In this document: positions 585 through 47,717 of the stretch, one piece after another | How positions within the stretch are numbered: the first letter of the stretch is position 1 | Layout of the letters: every line of letters starts with the position of its first letter | UHGV virus genome: UHGV-0097968 | From: a virus | Reading direction: 5' to 3' (one strand) | DNA length: 47,717 nucleotides | Notes under the pieces: generated by a model | The model's database searches: none | Told to the model about the DNA's origin: nothing | The model's input: only the letters and a program-made list of their open reading frames with translations | Made by a program: the position numbers and the translations under genes

Positions 585-1631
585 TCATTTTCTCTGGCCA
601 CCAACTACGGGCACTACTTTAACTTTTCGGTCATATGCTGCTGTCTGTCGTGGGTTCTTATGCCCGGAAATTGCTTGCTTCTCTTCCAGGCTGCCTTCCA
701 GATCAGAGATACCTTTTGCTTTCAGATCATGAAATGTGAAGTCTATTTGCAGATGAGGATATTTTTCCTGTGCTGCCGCTTTGACATCACGCCAACGAGA
801 GTTAAAACCATCACGGGTGTACTTGCCTCCGGTAGTTTGATGAATCACAAACAGGCTACTGATTCCCGGTTTTAATGGCAGAGAACGAGCCAGAGCTATC
901 GCTTTCTGCAGACGAGGCGACCAGGCTTTGATTTGCTTAACGCCGGTTTTTCCCTGACGAATGTAGATCCCGGAATCGAACAGCTGGTCTTTCTGCAATG
1001 AAAGTACATCACTCTGTCTGGCCACGCATAAGTAGGCAATCTCCATTGCCACGCGAACAACATCAGGAGATACTTCATAAACGGCCTGATATTCTTCATC
1101 CGTAATATAACGTTCGCGTGCTGTCTCTTTAAACTGCTTAACTCCCTGACAAGGATTCCTCTGGACATAACCTCGTTCATAACCCCAACGGAATACCCTG
1201 GACATAAAGCTTTTTTCCCTGTTTGCCTGAGTTCGGCTTGATAAACCGCGTTGATCCATATAGCGCCGAATATGTTCAGGTTTGATTTTATCCGGGTCGA
1301 TCTTCCCGAAGACAGGCAGAACTTTTCCGGAATATTTTGTGTAGTCTTTCCTGGTTTCGACTGCCAAATCCATAAAATCAGGGGAGGTCATGAATTGTTC
1401 CGCGAGCGCCTGAAAAGTATTTCTTTCTTTTTCGTCACCGACCGCTTTTTCATATGCCAGCCATACGGCTGATCGTGGCGCATCCAATGCGCACAGGCGT
1501 ATCGCTTTGTTATCTTTATTCCTGAATTCGTAGGCCGCTTTGCCCTGGTAAACACGAGGCGGCATCCAGTTATCTGCTGGGTTCTTTCTCTTTCCGGCCA
1601 TTAAATATTGCTCCAAAATCAGGTTCATCAT
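585..1631 (-). CDS. int: Tyrosine recombinase, lambda-family phage integrase
   Basis: 348-aa ORF next to attL; C-terminal catalytic region with HDLKAKGISD...GH...AAYDRK resembling lambda Int R-H-R-Y region; RQGKTGVKQIK motif; true start may be an internal Met (MAGKRK). Confidence 0.9.
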   Translation of the reverse strand: MMNLILEQYLMAGKRKNPADNWMPPRVYQGKAAYEFRNKDNKAIRLCALDAPRSAVWLAYEKAVGDEKERNTFQALAEQFMTSPDFMDLAVETRKDYTKYSGKVLPVFGKIDPDKIKPEHIRRYMDQRGLSSRTQANREKSFMSRVFRWGYERGYVQRNPCQGVKQFKETARERYITDEEYQAVYEVSPDVVRVAMEIAYLCVARQSDVLSLQKDQLFDSGIYIRQGKTGVKQIKAWSPRLQKAIALARSLPLKPGISSLFVIHQTTGGKYTRDGFNSRWRDVKAAAQEKYPHLQIDFTFHDLKAKGISDLEGSLEEKQAISGHKNPRQTAAYDRKVKVVPVVGGQRK

Positions 1632-7551: not shown

Positions 7552-7776
7552 ATGTTAAGACATATTGACCGCATTACCTGGCGTAACGGCTGGCACCTGA
7601 ATGGGCGCCCGGCACATGTTGCAGAGATCCAACCTATTTTTGATGGGCGTATGGCTGCCGCGCTTTCGGTGTGGGAGCAGTATGAATCCAGGAAGGTCGA
7701 GTTGCGCGACAAAGGGCTGAGCAATGCGGACTATGAAGCCGGTTGTCGTCAGATAGCCGAAGCTCTGGAGATCTGA
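7552..7776 (+). CDS. Hypothetical early protein
   Basis: 74-aa ORF preceded by conserved element CCTGACCAGCG...ACCGAGGAAAGACCGATG. Confidence 0.5.
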   Translation: MLRHIDRITWRNGWHLNGRPAHVAEIQPIFDGRMAAALSVWEQYESRKVELRDKGLSNADYEAGCRQIAEALEI

Positions 7777-7778
7777 GT

Positions 7779-8843
7779 ATGAGTCGTTTGCTGATTAACG
7801 AAAACCCCCTTCAGGTCCTGCCCACGTTGGCATGCACTATAGGGTTGAATGAAGCCATCGTTCTACAGCAAATCCACTACTGGCTGAATTCGTCTCAAAA
7901 TTTCTTCGAAAATCGCCACTGGGTGTACAACAGTGTGACCGACTGGCAAGAACAATTCCCGTTCTGGAGCGAGTCGACAATAAAACGCGTGTTGGCCAAT
8001 CTGGAAAAATTGAATGTGTTGCTTACTGGGAACTTTAACAGTGATGCCTGGGATAAAACCAAGTGGTATTCAATCAATTATGCCCAGTTATGTAAGATTG
8101 AAGAGACAACATTCCCTGTGGCCAATCGATTAGGTCAAGTTGACCCAATCGAAGAGGTCAATGTGACCCAAGCATCAGGTCAAGTTGACCCATGCGCTAA
8201 GGTCAAAATGACCCAATCTCCTACAGAGAATACAACAGAGAGTACTACAGAGATAAAAGATCCCCCTTACCCCCAAAAGGGGGAGGGCGAGGAAATCATT
8301 CTCGCTGACGCTCAAAAAGCTCTGAACTACTACAACGAGAAAGTCGGTACCCGCTGCCGCGACGTTAAACCGTTTGTCATGCTGCTAACTGCCACCACCA
8401 CCCGCGCTGGTTACAGCGTGGCTGAGATTCAGTTAGTAATTCGTTGGGTTATTGCGACATGGCGCCGTCGTAGCGGAAGCGTGCCGAAACCTGCGAACAT
8501 TTGCCGCGTAAACCGGTTTGACGGATATCTGGCTGACGCTGAGGCGTGGGCCACTGCTGAGGCTGCCGTTGACCCTGCTGAAGTTGTGAAGGGCTACAAC
8601 GAGATTCTGGGCGACCTGCTACCTATAGCTGAAATTGATACTGACCGCCGTCGGGCAATCCTGCGCCTGCTGGCACATATGCGCACGCAAACTCTTGGCG
8701 CATTTATCGGCTACTTCGAAAAATTCCGCGATAACGCCCCAGACTTCTATTTCGGCGGCGAATATCGCACCGGCTGGCGGGCAGGGTTTGATTACCTGAT
8801 GAAACCGGAAACGCTGCGTAAAACCAGGGAGGGGGCATTATGA
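7779..8843 (+). CDS. Replication initiator (lambda O-like), origin iterons inside the gene
   Basis: ATG at 7779 with GGAG RBS (the track's 7743 start is a TTG); four iterons within the coding region; stop overlaps helicase start (ATGA). Confidence 0.7.
   Translation: MSRLLINENPLQVLPTLACTIGLNEAIVLQQIHYWLNSSQNFFENRHWVYNSVTDWQEQFPFWSESTIKRVLANLEKLNVLLTGNFNSDAWDKTKWYSINYAQLCKIEETTFPVANRLGQVDPIEEVNVTQASGQVDPCAKVKMTQSPTENTTESTTEIKDPPYPQKGEGEEIILADAQKALNYYNEKVGTRCRDVKPFVMLLTATTTRAGYSVAEIQLVIRWVIATWRRRSGSVPKPANICRVNRFDGYLADAEAWATAEAAVDPAEVVKGYNEILGDLLPIAEIDTDRRRAILRLLAHMRTQTLGAFIGYFEKFRDNAPDFYFGGEYRTGWRAGFDYLMKPETLRKTREGAL
8133..8215. repeat. Origin-of-replication iterons (4 copies of GGTCAANNTGACCCA, period about 22-23 bp)
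   Basis: Copies at 8133-8147, 8156-8170, 8178-8192, 8201-8215 inside the initiator gene. Confidence 0.7.
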
Positions 8844-14510: not shown

Positions 14511-14541
14511 CAGGTTGAATGTTTGGCGCGGTTATACTCTA

Positions 14542-14618
14542 TTTGCGCTTAAAAAGGTATTTAGTCACAACCAGCACGAGGCCGAATACTCTGTCAAAGT
14601 ACCGCCCATGTAAAACTG
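14542..14618 (-). pseudogene. Frameshifted 3' fragment homologous to the C-terminal end of the 18140-18745 membrane protein gene
   Basis: 77 bp with about 90% identity by eye to 18144-18220; minus-strand translation starts MGGTLTE then loses frame through a 1-bp deletion. Confidence 0.5.
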
Positions 14619-14687
14619 TAACGTATGTACTTGATGACTAAGCTGGCACCAGGTTAACACCAGGCGCCAGCTTGAAGGAAACTTCAG

Positions 14688-18139: not shown

Positions 18140-18745
18140 TTACTTGCGTTTAAAAAGGTATTTTGTCACGACCAGCACGAGGCCGAATACCTCTGTCAAA
18201 GTACCGCCCATGTACAACTGGAGCGTTAAGTCTTTAAATACAAGCCATTCAGCACCAGTGGCAAAAAATACACCATTCATTATCAAAAGCTGGCAAGCAA
18301 GGATAATAAGGAACCATTTGCCATAGCGTTTTTTTAGATCGATTTCAGCTTCAAAATCTTTGTTGTTGAGTTGTTTGCGCTCATGCTCAGTATCAAGTGA
18401 ATTCACCTGTTTCACAGATGTGAACTCGGTCAAGATTTTACTCTCAGTACGGGTGACTTGTTGAGAGGGGGTAGGAATTGGAATTCTTTTGATTGACGCA
18501 GCTACAGCCATTTTGCGAGCTTCGGCAGCTCTTTTTCTGGCTATTCCGTGAATACGGGCAGACGGTTTTTTTGGAGCGTGCGAAACCTTTGTCTGAGGTG
18601 AAGTTTCGTCAGGAGACTGAACCGGAGTTTCATCCTCCTCCGGCTCAACCTCTTCTGCTAACTGACGGTGTAGGTTGAGGGAATCCTTCAGTCGGCGTGC
18701 AACTTCCTGTTTGAAACGGCTGTTAAAATCGTCATCCGATGGCAT
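18140..18745 (-). CDS. Membrane protein (disordered charged N-terminal region, two C-terminal TM helices), co-operonic with ImmA-like peptidase
   Basis: 201 aa; hydrophobic segments WFLIILACQLLIMNGVFFATGA and GTLTEVFGLVLVVTKYL; 9-bp gap to upstream peptidase gene; 3' end duplicated at 14542-14618. Confidence 0.65.
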   Translation of the reverse strand: MPSDDDFNSRFKQEVARRLKDSLNLHRQLAEEVEPEEDETPVQSPDETSPQTKVSHAPKKPSARIHGIARKRAAEARKMAVAASIKRIPIPTPSQQVTRTESKILTEFTSVKQVNSLDTEHERKQLNNKDFEAEIDLKKRYGKWFLIILACQLLIMNGVFFATGAEWLVFKDLTLQLYMGGTLTEVFGLVLVVTKYLFKRK

Positions 18746-22926: not shown

Positions 22927-23310
22927 ATGTCTGAACCTCTAACCGCTGGCGTTGCTGCTGGCTCGGCGGGGGTGACGTTTGCTGCGTTATTTCCTGAGGC
23001 AACACCTGCAGTGATGATCTGTGCGCTGGCAGGCGCAGCTCTCTATGTGTTGTCATCCGGGCAGCATCGATTCTGGAAGCAGGTTATTTTCGCACTCATT
23101 TCGTTTGTTGGCGGTGTGTATTGCGCTGAGACAGCGTCAGCAATCATTACCGGTATTCTGAATGCGATGCTGAGTCACCTGAACCCTCCCGTAACAGTAA
23201 AAGTCTCTCCCGCCATTGGTGCACTGGTTGCATCAGTAATCAGCGTTACATCACTGTTGCGGATCATGTCACAAGCTCGTTTATGGAAATCAGATAAGGG
23301 GATGAAATAA
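22927..23310 (+). CDS. Holin
   Basis: 127 aa with three hydrophobic segments and charged C-terminus; first gene after Q-like. Confidence 0.7.
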   Translation: MSEPLTAGVAAGSAGVTFAALFPEATPAVMICALAGAALYVLSSGQHRFWKQVIFALISFVGGVYCAETASAIITGILNAMLSHLNPPVTVKVSPAIGALVASVISVTSLLRIMSQARLWKSDKGMK

Positions 23311-23582
23311 TGACCCTGCACTCTGTCCTCATCAATGCCAATGCAATTATTTGTCTGATGCTGGCACTACGGTTGATGTTTTTTCAAAAAACAGGCCGCT
23401 ATCGTTTTTTTATCTCACTAACTGCTTACCTGGCGATTCTGTCTGCTGCGTGGATAGCCCTACGAATTTTTTACGGGAAATATACGCAGGTTGATCCCGC
23501 AGAGTTTTTTCTCAACCTCACCATCTGTATTGCTGTCTGGCGGGCACGAGGGAATATTTCAAAAATAACAGGAGACAGGTAA
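23310..23582 (+). CDS. Small membrane protein (second holin/antiholin-like)
   Basis: 90 aa, two hydrophobic helices, overlapping start/stop with neighbours. Confidence 0.55.
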   Translation: MTLHSVLINANAIICLMLALRLMFFQKTGRYRFFISLTAYLAILSAAWIALRIFYGKYTQVDPAEFFLNLTICIAVWRARGNISKITGDR

Positions 23583-24064
23583 TGACCGATCCTAAATGGC
23601 TAATTGAGGCTCGAAAAAACCTCGGCATTCGGGAAATGAAAGGGAAGCAACATGCTGCAGAAATTGTGCAGTACTGGAAAGATATCAAACGCGGCGGCAT
23701 TAAGGATGACGAAACACCGTGGTGCGCTGCTTTCACCGGGGCAATGCTGGAACGTGCGGGTATTCGCTCAACGCGTTTTGAGTCTGCGAATTCTTATCTC
23801 GATTGGGGTAATGAACTGAAGGAACCCGCCTATGGATGCATTGCTATTCTGTCTCGGTCTGGCGGTGGTCACGTTGGCTTTGTTGTCGGGAAAAATGCCG
23901 CCGGGGATTTAATGATTTTGGGTGGTAACCAGGCAGATGAAGTAAATATCAAAGCTTTTTCTCGTTCCCGCATAACAGGCTATCGCTGGCCTGTTGATGT
24001 GCTGGATGTGCCGTCAACCTTGCCGCTGCTGATGGGAGGTGAATTATCAACTTCGGAGCAGTAA
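23582..24064 (+). CDS. Endolysin, Cys/His peptidase type (TIGR02594/CHAP-like)
   Basis: 160 aa; conserved Cys (PWCAAF) and His (GGHVGFV) spacing typical of CHAP/NlpC-P60-like endolysins. Confidence 0.65.
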   Translation: MTDPKWLIEARKNLGIREMKGKQHAAEIVQYWKDIKRGGIKDDETPWCAAFTGAMLERAGIRSTRFESANSYLDWGNELKEPAYGCIAILSRSGGGHVGFVVGKNAAGDLMILGGNQADEVNIKAFSRSRITGYRWPVDVLDVPSTLPLLMGGELSTSEQ

Positions 24065-24066
24065 CC

Positions 24067-24258
24067 ATGAAAAAGTTCTTTCTACTGGCAGCGTTGGTGC
24101 TTGCGGGTTGCTCAAACACGACGTACACGGAAGCAACGCATCCCAACGGCACGACCGTAAAGCACATTTCTATCGCACCGGGTACGAAGAGCACAACCGC
24201 AAGTGGTGGCTGTATCGACTCTACCGGGGCTGCGGCTTCATGCCCATTGGATCAATGA
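24067..24258 (+). CDS. Small lipoprotein (possible o-spanin-like or entry-exclusion lipoprotein)
   Basis: 63 aa; signal peptide with lipobox LAGC; additional Cys residues; follows endolysin. Confidence 0.55.
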   Translation: MKKFFLLAALVLAGCSNTTYTEATHPNGTTVKHISIAPGTKSTTASGGCIDSTGAAASCPLDQ

Positions 24259-44312: not shown

Positions 44313-44737
44313 CAATGAGTGATTCAATAAGCGGTGCTGAGGACATTATGCTCGGCCTGGGTGATTTCATTTTTGCTATATCAACAATAGCGTACAACAA
44401 ACTGCAACGTAGTGACGCCTGGCGCTGGGCTCAGCAAACACGATTCGGGAAAAACGACGCGTTGCAGATAACAGGACGACCGAACCCCACAATTACTATC
44501 GATGGAAAGATAAACGCTTTATTCCTTGACGGGTGCGGCGTCGGCCTGTTGACAGATTTGCGTGCGCTCGGGAACACGGGAGAACCCCAGCAGCTAGTGC
44601 TGGGGACCGGGGAGGTGAAAGGGTACTGGGTTATCAGGGAGTTAACAGAAACGCAAAACAGTTTTCTGAAAGGAGGAACCCCAAAATCGCAGGACTTTTC
44701 ACTCACGCTCGAATATTACGGAGCTTCGCTGGATTGA
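44309..44737 (+). CDS. Tail protein, P2 gpU-like
   Basis: 142-aa ORF immediately after tape measure. Confidence 0.65.
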   Translation: MTMSDSISGAEDIMLGLGDFIFAISTIAYNKLQRSDAWRWAQQTRFGKNDALQITGRPNPTITIDGKINALFLDGCGVGLLTDLRALGNTGEPQQLVLGTGEVKGYWVIRELTETQNSFLKGGTPKSQDFSLTLEYYGASLD

Positions 44738-44976
44738 ACTTCTTTCGGTTTTTTATCACCGAGAGCGGACCACAGCAACAGAATGATCCACATCAAAAAT
44801 ATCCATCCGAATAATATATTCAGAATAACGACCATTGCGCAGCTTTTATGTCCCCTTATTAGAGCAATTACTAACGGTATTACGTATAAAATGATGGATA
44901 TTAACGGGTTCGCCATTAACCATATATACAGAGCGATAACCCACGCAAATAATTCCATTTGAGGCCTCATAATCAT
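44716..44976 (-). CDS. Small integral membrane protein encoded antisense within the tail module (candidate moron)
   Basis: 86 aa, two to three hydrophobic helices; local AT-rich composition; convergent with gpU-like and divergent from gpX-like. Confidence 0.45.
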   Translation of the reverse strand: MIMRPQMELFAWVIALYIWLMANPLISIILYVIPLVIALIRGHKSCAMVVILNILFGWIFLMWIILLLWSALGDKKPKEVQSSEAP

Positions 44977-45190: not shown

Positions 45191-46234
45191 ATGAGTGATT
45201 ACGTAAATACTGGCGTGGAAGCATGGAAGCCCAATTTTTATATATCTGCTGATAATGAAAACATCACGGAAAAAATAAGAAAAGGTTTGATCAATATCAC
45301 GCTCACAGATTATGGCGGTTCGAGTAAACAGACAGACGAATTACGCGTAGCTATCGTTTCTGAAACACTGAAAATTCCGGCCCGTGGTGTGAAAATCAGT
45401 CTTGGGCTCGGTTTCGGTAATCAGATAATTGATAAAGGTATATACATCGTTGATGGTGCGAGCAGTGGCGGGGAACCCCGGGTAGTTGATTTCACAGCAA
45501 AAGCGGCTCCGATGAACGCGTCAAAAGGCGCTCCGACAGTTCAGAGCAAAAAAACTCGCTCCTGGAGCGACGTCACTGTCAGCAATATCGTTGCGACAAT
45601 AGCGAGCGATAACGGGCTTAAACCTCGCGTATCAAAGCGGTTTGCAGACAACATTATCACGCAGCTCGATCAAGTCGGTGAGTCAGATATGCACCTGATG
45701 TCGAGACTAGCAACACGATTCGATGCGGTGAGCAAACCCGCAGGAGGGTACTGGATATTCCTGCCGCGCGGCGCGGGCGAATCAGTTAGCGGTGCTCCGC
45801 TCCAGCACTACACGCTAACTCGTCGTGATAACTCCAGCTGGGGCTATTCGAGAAATGGACAAAGCGGTGATAGTGGCGGTGGTGGCGAAAATCCGGAGCC
45901 GACGTATCTGATTAAATATCACGACACAGCAACTGGGCAGATCAAAGAATTGCGGACAGGTAGTGGCGGCGATCCTGTCATTGAATGGCCGGCAGTTGAG
46001 CCGTCGCTCGACGCAGCGAAAGAAGCTGCACCAGGGCTCAAGGGCGGTGCAGCTAAAAAAGAGTTCTCTATGACGTACACGACGCCAGCGACGCTCGATT
46101 TAGTGTCGCTGACAGCAGAATGCAAAGTCACAACTCAAGGATTCGGGACCGAGGAGGACCGGGACTGGACTATCAACACGCTGAGCCTGACGCTTGCTGA
46201 AAACGGCTTTTCGGTTCGACTGTCTCTGGAGTAA
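45191..46234 (+). CDS. Tail protein D / late control D-like
   Basis: 347-aa ORF at gpD position after U and X. Confidence 0.8.
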   Translation: MSDYVNTGVEAWKPNFYISADNENITEKIRKGLINITLTDYGGSSKQTDELRVAIVSETLKIPARGVKISLGLGFGNQIIDKGIYIVDGASSGGEPRVVDFTAKAAPMNASKGAPTVQSKKTRSWSDVTVSNIVATIASDNGLKPRVSKRFADNIITQLDQVGESDMHLMSRLATRFDAVSKPAGGYWIFLPRGAGESVSGAPLQHYTLTRRDNSSWGYSRNGQSGDSGGGGENPEPTYLIKYHDTATGQIKELRTGSGGDPVIEWPAVEPSLDAAKEAAPGLKGGAAKKEFSMTYTTPATLDLVSLTAECKVTTQGFGTEEDRDWTINTLSLTLAENGFSVRLSLE

Positions 46235-46400
46235 ATTGGCTCGGCGAGCCGGTGGCGGGTATGAATTTAGTATTAACGACTGTCGACTGCAAACGGCACC
46301 TGCGATATTTTTAGGCGTAAGCCGGAGAACGAAGAGTCTCTGGTGCTGAACGTTGTTATCGTTAGATCCTGACATTTTTTAATATTGGGAGTTTTCAAAC

Positions 46401-46820
46401 ATGGTCGTTAAAAATGCTCTTGCCTGTGGGATTATGCTTGCTCTTGTCGGTTGTGCTACAAAACCTGTCTCAAATGAACAAGCCACTCCTGTTCCTGAAA
46501 AACAAATTATCAGCACCGCGTTACTCGAAAAACGAGACGGTACGGGAGAGGTGATCATCAAGCGTGACTCGGGTTTCTTTGGAAGCGCGTGCTTTTCCCG
46601 TGTTTATGTTGATGGTAAAGAGGTGGCAGATTTAGGTACAGCTCAGAAAGTCGTTGTATACCCAACGATTGGTGATCATGTCTTCAGCGCGTGGCCTAAA
46701 GGGGTATGTGGCGGTGGTATGAGTGAGCAGGCGGGCAAGGTGACAACAGATCGTACTTTGATGTATCGCATAGGGTATGGATCAAACGGTGAATATGGCA
46801 TTCACCCAACTGCGTTTTAA
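46401..46820 (+). CDS. Lipoprotein of unknown function at prophage right end (candidate lysogenic-conversion cargo)
   Basis: 139 aa; signal peptide with lipobox LVGC; located between last tail gene and attR with its own terminator. Confidence 0.7.
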   Translation: MVVKNALACGIMLALVGCATKPVSNEQATPVPEKQIISTALLEKRDGTGEVIIKRDSGFFGSACFSRVYVDGKEVADLGTAQKVVVYPTIGDHVFSAWPKGVCGGGMSEQAGKVTTDRTLMYRIGYGSNGEYGIHPTAF

Positions 46821-46828
46821 TTTGTGTT

Positions 46829-46860
46829 GGGGTATGTGAGTTTTTCTCATACCCCTTTAC
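46829..46860 (+). terminator. Terminator-like hairpin after the right-end lipoprotein gene
   Basis: 8-bp stem GGGGTATG/CATACCCC with T-rich tail. Confidence 0.45.
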
Positions 46861-47041
46861 CTCACTTTGCTCCTGACTGTTTGGTCACATCAAGGCGCAA
46901 AACATCACCATTTTTTGCCAAAAACCTTCAGAAGATGATGAGTAAGACGTGTCATAACTATATGATTATTTGATATTCACACGCACCATTATGTCCGGAT
47001 AATTTACCATAATCATTTGAATTTATTGCACAAAACGAACA

Positions 47042-47166
47042 ATTTAAAATCCCTCGGCGTTCGCGCTGTGCGGGTTCAAGTCCCGCTCCGGGTACCATGG
47101 GAAAGATAAGAATAAAATCAAAGCAATAAGCAGTGTCGTGAAACCACCTTCGGGTGGTTTTTTTGT
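47042..47166. repeat. attR: right copy of the 125-bp direct repeat (3' fragment of tRNA-Leu plus terminator)
   Basis: Identical by eye to 399-523; contains only the 3' 56 nt of the tRNA (47042-47097) plus the terminator hairpin. Confidence 0.85.
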
Positions 47167-47292
47167 GCCTGCAACTTGTCGTTACACCCTCCTTAATTTT
47201 TAATCACCAGCAAAGCCACTCAAAAAGTATCTCTGATACGGACCGGCATGTAAGATAGGTGCTGGCGAGTTGAGATCCACAAGGAAAATCGT

Positions 47293-47717
47293 ATGAAAAC
47301 GGGACCGTTAAACGAAAGTGAGTTGGAATGGCTGGACGATATTCTGACCAAATACAACACTGACCACGCCATCCTTGATGTGGCGGAGCTGGACGGTTTA
47401 TTGACGGCGGTGTTGAGTTCTCCGCAAGAGATTGAACCGGAACAGTGGCTGGTTGCCGTGTGGGGTGGGGCTGACTATGTGCCGCGCTGGGCGTCAGAGA
47501 AAGAGATGACGCGCTTTATGAATCTGGCTTTTCAACATATGGCCGATACCGCAGAGCGTCTGAACGAATTCCCGGAGCAGTTTGAGCCGTTATTCGGCTT
47601 GCGAGAAGTTGATGGCAGCGAGCTGACGATTGTTGAGGAGTGGTGCTTTGGCTATATGCGGGGCGTGGCACTTTCTGACTGGTCAACGTTGCCCGATTCG
47701 TTAAAACCAGCGCTGGA
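47293..47717 (+). CDS. yecA: YecA-like protein (UPF0149 family), host gene, 3'-truncated by window end
   Basis: ORF begins MKTGPLNESELEWLDDILTKYNTDHAILDV with AAGGAAAA RBS; runs off the window; known neighbour of leuZ in E. coli by recollection. Confidence 0.75.
   Translation, partial: MKTGPLNESELEWLDDILTKYNTDHAILDVAELDGLLTAVLSSPQEIEPEQWLVAVWGGADYVPRWASEKEMTRFMNLAFQHMADTAERLNEFPEQFEPLFGLREVDGSELTIVEEWCFGYMRGVALSDWSTLPDSLKPAL

Follow-up and report, generated by a model that had tools for sequence, protein, structure and literature searches.

A PHROG 890 lipoprotein gene at the right end of an Escherichia coli prophage is moron cargo with a possible role in envelope-level protection

The stretch of DNA analysed in this study (the window, 47,717 nucleotides (nt) of the virus genome UHGV-0097968) comprises a complete 46.6-kb E. 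coli prophage in tRNA-Leu (leuZ), the last gene of which encodes a predicted lipoprotein of 139 amino acids (aa) that belongs to the PHROG 890 family. Its distribution marks this gene as intact accessory "moron" cargo and not a core phage gene, because it is absent or replaced at the same junction in related prophages and occupies many junctions in unrelated elements. By analogy with known exclusion genes, its product quite possibly acts as a receptor-independent factor for envelope-level protection or superinfection exclusion. The gene is a further member of a catalogued family, and the phage moron lipoprotein is already a well-known type of element. The gene and its product comprise the following features.

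46401-46820, plus strand: lipoprotein open reading frame (ORF) with an ATG start, 139 codons (ORF list, PHROG 890, AlphaFold2 model)
46401-46451, plus strand: signal peptide, residues 1-17, part of the lipoprotein ORF
46452-46454, plus strand: codon of the predicted lipidated residue Cys18, part of the lipoprotein ORF
Residues ~19-45 of the product: proline-rich tether
Residues ~46-139 of the product: beta-sandwich with the conserved residues C64 and C103

The full-length match to PHROG 890, the 84 close homologues, the 1465 representative clusters and a ratio of nonsynonymous to synonymous substitution rates (dN/dS) of 0.03-0.08 together indicate that 46401-46820 is a genuine gene and not a chance ORF. 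The original prediction of a lipoprotein with the lipobox LVGC gave its coordinates exactly, and a lipobox is present both in the window protein and in 192 of 230 collected family members. The signal peptide, MVVKNALACGIMLALVGC, has K4 in its n-region, a hydrophobic core and the lipobox L15-V16-G17-C18. A protein was taken as a lipoprotein if it had a positive n-region, a hydrophobic core, a lipobox of the form [LVI][ASTVI][GAS]C and the cysteine within about residues 15-35, all of which are present here. The PROSITE-type lipobox pattern reads {DERK}(6)-[LIVMFWSTAG](2)-[LIVMFYSTAGCQ]-[AGS]-C, and the N-terminus, which parses as MVVK-NALACGIMLA-LVG-C18, matches the corresponding regular expression at residues 8-18, with K4 within the first seven residues.

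The mature protein would have 122 aa (~13 kDa) with Ala at the +2 position. In Enterobacterales, Asp at +2 keeps a lipoprotein in the inner membrane, and the predicted destination of the mature protein is therefore the outer membrane; no collected family member has Asp at +2, whereas 158 have Ala and 18 have Ser. There are four cysteines, of which C9 belongs to the signal peptide and C18 is the residue predicted to be lipidated; the others are C64 and C103. The earlier suggestion that several cysteines stabilise the protein by disulfides thus holds in part: C64 and C103 are each at least 90% conserved among 127 diverse relatives, but theirs is the only disulfide possible in the mature protein. 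Because of the Ala at +2 and the conserved C64/C103 pair, the most reasonable reading of the sequence is that of a periplasm-facing, disulfide-braced lipoprotein anchored in the outer membrane. The ORF translation has no C-terminal hydrophobic segment.

The PHROG 890 profile (annotated "lipoprotein", category "other") was matched with E=1.7e-52, residues 4-139 aligning with positions 2-136 of 136. Members of this family include HK639 gp16 (YP_004934046; 69% identity to the window protein), gp31 of Vibrio phage H20 (45%), the SSU5 lipoprotein and mEp390 gp17 (28%), and the proteins of Klebsiella phage-plasmids are 38% identical. They share with the window protein their size, the lipobox, the conserved cysteine pair and a C-terminal PTAF motif. 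At E<=1e-3, at least 1465 representative clusters (50% identity) were recovered in a profile search, with lengths of 125-150 aa in nearly every case, and family members were also found in Vibrio anguillarum phages, Pseudomonas sp. ANT_H14, Ralstonia, a Geobacteraceae genome and wastewater metagenomes. Near-invariant positions among the 127 diverse members are C18, R55, D56, G58, C64, A76, G91, C103, E109 and R123. Longer family members were inspected for informative domain fusions and none was found; these forms look like mis-called starts or frameshifts.

The window protein itself gave no Pfam match even at E<=1, and searches of NCBIfam and of Protein Data Bank (PDB) sequences gave no informative match; the PDB searches, run with the single protein and with a 127-sequence profile, returned matches to the signal peptide only. 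Weak matches to DUF2846 (PF11008), a small bacterial lipoprotein-type beta-sandwich domain, were obtained for 6 of 23 close relatives (best E=1.2e-6) and 32 of 127 diverse relatives (best E=1.3e-7), the two scores shown being 18-20 bits against a gathering threshold of 34.3. PHROG 890 is thus best described, from these sequence matches, as a distant sister of DUF2846, with the difference that the window protein has no Pfam match and DUF2846 is itself uncharacterised. Bd1399, the only solved "member" of DUF2846, has been moved to DUF4360 (PMC10792529). An AlphaFold2 model built from a 23-sequence alignment is all-beta, with a predicted local distance difference test (pLDDT) score of 89.4 and a predicted template modelling (pTM) score of 0.82; an extended, proline-rich tether of ~25 residues is followed by an eight-strand beta-sandwich.

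Comparison of alleles points to strong functional constraint on the protein, whatever the state of its promoter, because dN/dS is 0.03-0.08. The window and ST131-type alleles differ by 11 synonymous changes and one nonsynonymous change, the latter in the signal peptide (dN/dS 0.03). Between the window allele and that of the siphovirus and of locus L012 there are 29 synonymous and 10 nonsynonymous changes (dN/dS 0.08); all ten replacements lie in residues 6-41, that is, in the signal peptide and tether, and residues 42-139 are identical despite a synonymous divergence (dS) of 0.38. Of 5426 complete E. coli genomes, 436 (~8%) carry the gene at >=80% coverage, almost all of them with one allele of 97.1% identity, and many of these genomes are labelled O25b:H4-ST131.

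The positions of the gene were compared in annotated phages and 80 IMG/VR loci (numbered L), in which ORFs were called and neighbours labelled by BLASTP against the tail proteins of mEp390, HK639 and the window. We identified at least nine distinct junction types across 78 loci, and in tail clusters the gene is always co-oriented with the tail genes. Junctions recorded in this set include the following.

Between gpK and gpI: 38 loci
Between gpK and gpI, with an extra Bro-N-like gene ahead of the lipoprotein gene: 6 loci
Between tape measure and M (HK639 type): 9 loci
After tape measure and an ORF of 130-138 aa (PHROG 35526): 3 loci (L077-079)
Upstream of tape measure: 5 loci
Between M and L: 1 locus
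Between I and J: 1 locus
After gpD (window and relatives): 6 loci, one with a tail-fibre-like gene between

Elsewhere, in Vibrio phage H20 and locus L089, the lipoprotein gene lies 15 nt downstream of a cI-type repressor gene, a rexAB-like slot, which is transcribed in lysogens. In SSU5-like Klebsiella phage-plasmids the gene stands alone, and distant members adjoin an integrase, HepT/MNT and YoeB/Phd toxin-antitoxin pairs with resolvases, and a type I restriction system. Further morons accompany the lipoprotein cassette in tail operons of the HK639 and K|I types (loci L002, L038, L039 and L052). Among them are, in HK639, a YafO-family toxin and a PHROG 8416 protein and, separating gpK from the lipoprotein gene, genes of the Bro-N/antirepressor type (PHROG 129).

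The placement of the window gene was described in the original prediction as after the last tail gene and near attR, the right attachment site, and this proved correct. The gene follows the gpD-like gene, with 166 nt between the gpD-like stop codon and its start, and ends 221 nt short of attR. The prophage-end location, called classic in that prediction, is however atypical for the family, most members of which lie inside tail operons between gpK and gpI. Features of this end of the window are listed below.

45191-46234, plus strand: gpD-like tail/baseplate hub gene, the last tail gene (PHROG 52 "tail protein", 1e-92; weak Pfam Phage_GPD)
46275-46349 (~75 nt), plus strand: deletion scar, the 3' remnant of a "prophage tail fibre N-terminal domain" gene, recognised by alignment with related prophages
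46350-46400, plus strand: cassette leader with a Shine-Dalgarno (SD) sequence and a decayed promoter
46353-46358 and 46378-46383, plus strand: decayed promoter, a -35-like TTGTTA and a -10-like TTTAAT with a 19-nt spacer
46387-46391, plus strand: SD sequence GGGAG, 9 nt ahead of the ATG
46829-46855, plus strand: 3' cassette hairpin GGGGUAUGuGAG-UUUUU-CUCAUACCCC, terminator-like with a weak U tract

In E. coli prophages the post-gpD site is a cargo hotspot. It starts directly past the gpD-like stop codon, and the match to the sister prophage TUM11353 ends at window position 46236; TUM11353 keeps gpD and has the tail-fibre-N-domain gene but lacks the lipoprotein gene. A Bro-N gene is inserted at this site in GF131, and in LCP30S3_I5 and IMG/VR locus L012 a 598-aa tail-fibre-like gene lies between gpD and the lipoprotein gene; the L012 ORF matches Pfam phage_tail_N (E=4e-24) and has in addition a long uncharacterised C-terminal part. 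Alternative occupants of the site, which corresponds to 46235-46400 of the window, were recorded across loci L012, L098 and L099 and hits H126 and H163. An unrelated lambdoid siphovirus prophage near yodB (JNE151685) also ends in this cassette (46350-46857, 89% identity), with homology beginning at 46350 and stopping directly past the hairpin, which marks the exact 3' end of the cassette. The absence of the gene from TUM11353, the other inserts at the site, the copy in an unrelated siphovirus prophage and the many positions of the family all bear out the cargo status first proposed.

Across the family, the genes carry signals of their own. An intrinsic terminator (a GC-hairpin and T-run <=90 nt past the stop codon) follows 43 of 50 non-redundant family genes compared with 132 of 464 controls, which were other same-strand genes of the same loci (Fisher p=1.7e-15), and this enrichment persists even where the essential tail gene I comes next. 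Of 57 non-redundant upstream regions, 25 contain an extended -10 motif, TGnTAnn[AT]T (typically TGnTAGGAT), compared with 17 of 426 controls (p=1.8e-15), and the motif nearly always lies 30-43 nt ahead of the ATG. It occurs in the K|I, tape measure|M, I|J, pre-tape-measure and post-cI contexts, and in HK639-type loci it lies directly past the terminator of the upstream gene. The family layout of promoter, gene and terminator seen in these sequences is the arrangement that defines a moron.

The window allele is an exception to the family in both promoter and terminator. Where its leader has TTGTTA-N19-TTTAAT, the nearest relatives have TTGGTA-N18-TATAAT. The terminator attributed to the gene is a strong and conserved hairpin at 46829-46855 (-16.4 kcal/mol, z -4.5, with none of 200 shuffles equally stable), the stem of which is kept in the JNE151685 allele through compensatory changes; however, only UUUACC follows it, and the scan for canonical terminators does not call it and finds none. 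No terminator was found by the scan between the gpD-like gene and the lipoprotein gene, and read-through from the late operon could therefore still express the latter.

Because many kinds of mobile element carry the gene as dispensable cargo, it is likely to serve the carrier cell or the element and not virion structure. Following export, the protein would undergo diacylglyceryl transfer, cleavage by signal peptidase II and N-acylation at Cys18, and Lol-dependent sorting would deliver it to the inner leaflet of the outer membrane. At one end of the sandwich, a C64-C103 disulfide could then brace two conserved loops, KRDxGxxGSxC and CGGG, which together with the cysteine pair are candidates for the binding site. 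The tethered domain may bind either a component of the envelope or a part of the tails of incoming phages, in each case a conserved one, and such binding would protect lysogens and lytically infected cells at the envelope, most likely through receptor-independent, post-adsorption superinfection exclusion. The protection would most likely be directed against other phages. Transcription of the window allele would come largely from late tail operon read-through or from its weakened own promoter.

Several lines of evidence suggest exclusion. The positions of the family resemble those of exclusion genes, namely the moron slots of tail operons, the post-repressor slot and, in the window, a site 1.4 kb away from an Imm_superinfect gene, so that cargo of the exclusion type is already present in this part of the tail cluster:

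44716-44976, minus strand: Imm_superinfect gene, encoding an 86-aa membrane protein, antisense between gpU and gpX (Pfam PF14373, E=5.8e-11, above threshold; PHROG 1039 "immunity to superinfection")

From its domain matches, this gene is a second, independent exclusion-type moron of the same tail cluster, and its counterpart in TUM11353 is annotated as a superinfection immunity protein. Lipoproteins encoded in the tail clusters of mEpimmI phages exclude phages when expressed alone (PMC11893012). In 18 loci with complete J genes, as called by a crude ORF finder, lipoprotein identity correlated with that of the neighbours K (Spearman 0.69), I (0.79) and the N-terminus of J (0.73) but not with that of the 250-aa C-terminus of J (0.09), and among lipoproteins at least 95% identical, 25 of 39 pairs had J C-termini less than 40% identical. 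This lack of covariation with the receptor-binding end of gpJ argues against a plug of the Cor/Llp type for the phage's own receptor.

Other results weigh against an exclusion role. Lpp021 of the mEpimmI phages (72 aa) was considered as a homologue and rejected, since the BLASTP match has E=0.17 and covers the signal peptide only; the mEpimmI precedent is therefore an analogy only. PADLOC (PADLOC-DB 2.0) returned no family at E<=1 for the window protein, and the plasmid and toxin-antitoxin neighbourhoods fit any host-beneficial cargo and not exclusion specifically. Structure prediction, one of the checks first proposed, gave a confident beta-sandwich, in addition to the PHROG 890 match from homology, but structure comparison found no informative neighbour. 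Foldseek against the PDB found generic immunoglobulin (Ig), transthyretin, PEGA and carboxypeptidase-regulatory-like sandwiches (best E=1.3e-3, TM ~0.5, none with E<1e-3), and against BFVD the best viral match was a DUF4352 protein (E=9e-6); no function can be read from the fold. A literature search on DUF2846, HK639, the H20-like prophage lipoprotein, phrog_890 and prophage lipoprotein exclusion found no experimental work on the family. As for expression, a promoter and terminator scan of 45900-47300 found no sigma-70-like promoter or canonical terminator at the lipoprotein gene, and the -10 of the leader has lost the A at position 2. Expression of this allele in lysogens is uncertain for these reasons, and the earlier readings of expression from the prophage and of a terminator of its own are weaker for this allele than for the family as a whole.

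A broader form of the exclusion hypothesis, which we regard as improbable but worth stating, is that the family forms a receptor-independent periplasmic barrier to genome entry across siphoviruses, myoviruses, phage-plasmids and plasmids of Proteobacteria. In that case the sandwich domain might recognise a conserved envelope-crossing feature, for example the emerging complex of tape measure and tail tip or its peptidoglycan-cutting activity, and the family would be among the most widespread superinfection-exclusion families, present in many E. coli genomes including ST131-labelled strains. A general entry block would be relevant to the prediction of host range for phage therapy in ST131 and Klebsiella.

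The gene could instead be a host-fitness or virulence factor of the Bor/Iss/TraT type that alters the outer membrane, with effects on resistance to complement, antimicrobial peptides or stress and no anti-phage role, an explanation that we consider unlikely. Lambda bor is likewise an outer-membrane lipoprotein moron (PMC7067206), and the PHROG 890 gene is under strong purifying selection, is carried on plasmids and other mobile elements and is common in E. coli, many of the carriers being O25b:H4-ST131, an extraintestinal pathogen. However, no Pfam match to Lambda_Bor, TraT or any other family was obtained at E<=1, the family is equally present in environmental hosts, where serum resistance is irrelevant, and the overwhelming placement in tail modules is left unexplained. 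Were the protein to confer serum or envelope resistance, a pandemic clone would have a new determinant of fitness carried by a prophage.

Somewhat less probable is a periplasmic immunity protein or inhibitor directed against non-phage attack, either an inhibitor of lysozyme or peptidoglycan hydrolases (MliC/PliC-like) or an orphan immunity protein against type VI secretion system effectors, colicins or tailocins. Such inhibitors are typically small beta-sandwich lipoproteins that are braced by a disulfide and have a conserved loop. The conservation of the whole globular surface, the presence of the gene as cargo beside other conflict genes on diverse mobile elements and its most frequent siphovirus position, after gpK, which we take to bear a domain of the peptidoglycan-endopeptidase type, are all consistent with this explanation. 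Nevertheless, the protein has no sequence or structural match to known inhibitor or immunity families, and no adjacent effector gene was seen in any locus.

A blocker of the Cor (phi80, N15, HK022) or Llp (T5) type, which plugs the receptor of its own phage and so prevents superinfection and the loss of progeny on debris, is quite unlikely. Like cor and llp, the gene encodes an outer-membrane lipoprotein beside tail-tip or fibre genes, and mEpimmI phages encode tail-cluster lipoproteins that keep out phages dependent on the matching receptor (PMC11893012). Yet the correlation with the C-terminal region of J is only 0.09, near-identical lipoproteins accompany unrelated J C-termini, and an identical globular domain is found in a myovirus with a P2-like tail and in a lambdoid siphovirus. 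The family also spans phages of Enterobacterales, Vibrio, Pseudomonas and Ralstonia as well as plasmids, and no PHROG match to families of the Cor/Llp type was obtained.

We give equally little weight to the idea that the window allele is decaying cargo that is no longer expressed. Both of its regulatory signals are degenerate compared with the family and the nearest relatives, and the region upstream is a deletion scar, but the ORF is intact in ~436 genomes, dN/dS is 0.03 in the window/ST131 lineage and read-through past gpD, which no terminator follows, could still supply transcription. A role in lysis or in the virion, as o-spanin, u-spanin or tail assembly component, is very improbable: weak PHROG matches to Rz-like spanins (E ~0.09) and co-orientation with late genes in all tail-cluster loci would fit it, but the spanin matches span only the signal peptide region (residues 2-34), the protein is a folded 100-aa beta-sandwich with no C-terminal membrane segment, the gene is absent from related prophages and lies 22 kb from a lysis cassette with a lipoprotein ORF of its own, and an exported lipoprotein could not enter cytoplasmic tail assembly. 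A spanin identity was accordingly rejected, the gene being outside the lysis cassette (22927-24258) and its spanin matches at the level of the signal peptide only.

Morons are a main means by which prophages alter their hosts, and most moron families have no tested function. PHROG 890 is a large family that moves between phages and plasmids unrelated to one another, and the purifying selection on it is unusually strong; a single small gene of this kind is easy to test.

The remainder of the prophage provides the context of this gene. The phage terminase is of the gpA type, the contractile tail (sheath, gpU, gpX and gpD) is P2-like, and the flanking host genes are tRNA-Gly/Cys/Leu and yecA, with yecA after attR. 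The boundaries and the lysis region are as follows.

368-454: tRNA-Leu(taa), the 3' part of which lies inside the attL repeat
399-523 (attL) and 47042-47166 (attR, plus strand): an exact 125-nt direct repeat (100% identity, repeat search)
585-1631, minus strand: integrase gene
22927-23582: holins of the lysis cassette
23582-24064: endolysin of the lysis cassette
24067-24258, plus strand: 63-aa ORF with a lipobox (LAGC), directly after the endolysin

The att repeat is unusually long and exact, comprising the 3' 56 nt of tRNA-Leu(taa) and ~69 nt downstream, including the terminator of the tRNA operon, so that the phage carries a copy of host sequence far past the tRNA gene. The single sigma-70-like site of the right-end region, TTCACA-16-GATAAT at 46976-47003 on the plus strand (10 of 12 matches), sits between the lipoprotein gene and attR and faces the 3' remnant of tRNA-Leu; it may be due to chance, as shuffled sequences yield 2.1 sites per region. 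A search of 45900-47717 against Rfam gave only sub-threshold chance matches, at attR. The 63-aa ORF has no PHROG match and may be a lysis lipoprotein of an unclassified o-spanin- or u-spanin-like type.

In the early region, direct repeats at 14540-14624 and 18141-18226 consist of two adjacent repeats (50 and 36 nt, 92% identity) 3.6 kb apart, the second copy of the pair overlapping the 3' end of the minus-strand ORF 18140-18745. The segment between the copies could be an inserted module that they delimit, or the end of a gene could have been duplicated. At least three tandem repeats of ~22 nt (TGACCCAATCGA..GGTCAA type) at 8117-8206, within ORF 7743-8843, look like origin iterons inside a lambda O-like replication gene.

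Compared with other PHROG 890 genes, that of the window differs in nothing essential; it lies after gpD at the prophage end of a myovirus with a P2-like tail and not among the tail genes of a siphovirus, and its promoter and terminator are degraded. Lambda Bor/Iss and plasmid TraT are likewise outer-membrane lipoproteins that mobile elements carry as cargo and that are produced in the carrier cell, but they differ from the window protein in size and predicted fold, and the family is placed in tail modules and not in the lysis region. The Cor proteins (phi80, N15, HK022, mEp167), Llp of T5 and Lpp021/Lpp010 of the mEpimmI phages are outer-membrane lipoproteins encoded, like the window gene, in or beside tail and host-range genes, and all of these confer exclusion when expressed alone. 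Different from these, the window protein is twice as large, has a folded sandwich and is not matched to the receptor-binding domain of its own phage. A PHROG-level search for homology of the Cor/Llp type, in which Cor and Llp sequences were not directly compared, returned only PHROG 890 and spanin matches at the level of the signal peptide.

The HK97 gp15 moron is, as in the window family, an extra co-oriented gene within a lambdoid tail cluster; it has an autonomous promoter and terminator, and its product excludes phage after adsorption. A junction of the same type, beside the tape-measure gene, is used by some family members (L080-83, L087-88). HK97 gp15 is an inner-membrane protein and not a lipoprotein, and homology to the window protein was neither found nor expected. 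In T4, Spackle and Imm, a periplasmic and a small membrane protein, jointly block superinfecting entry, and the window prophage similarly has a lipoprotein and an Imm_superinfect gene; one relative gave a chance-level T4_Spackle match (E=0.23). In the E. coli prophages, however, the two genes are carried independently of each other: TUM11353 lacks the lipoprotein gene but has Imm, and ST131-type prophages have no room for the full 261-nt Imm gene, because their gpU-gpX intergenic gap is 174 nt compared with 238 nt in the window. For the proposed role in envelope-level exclusion, the closest analogues are HK97 gp15, T4 Spackle and P1 Sim.

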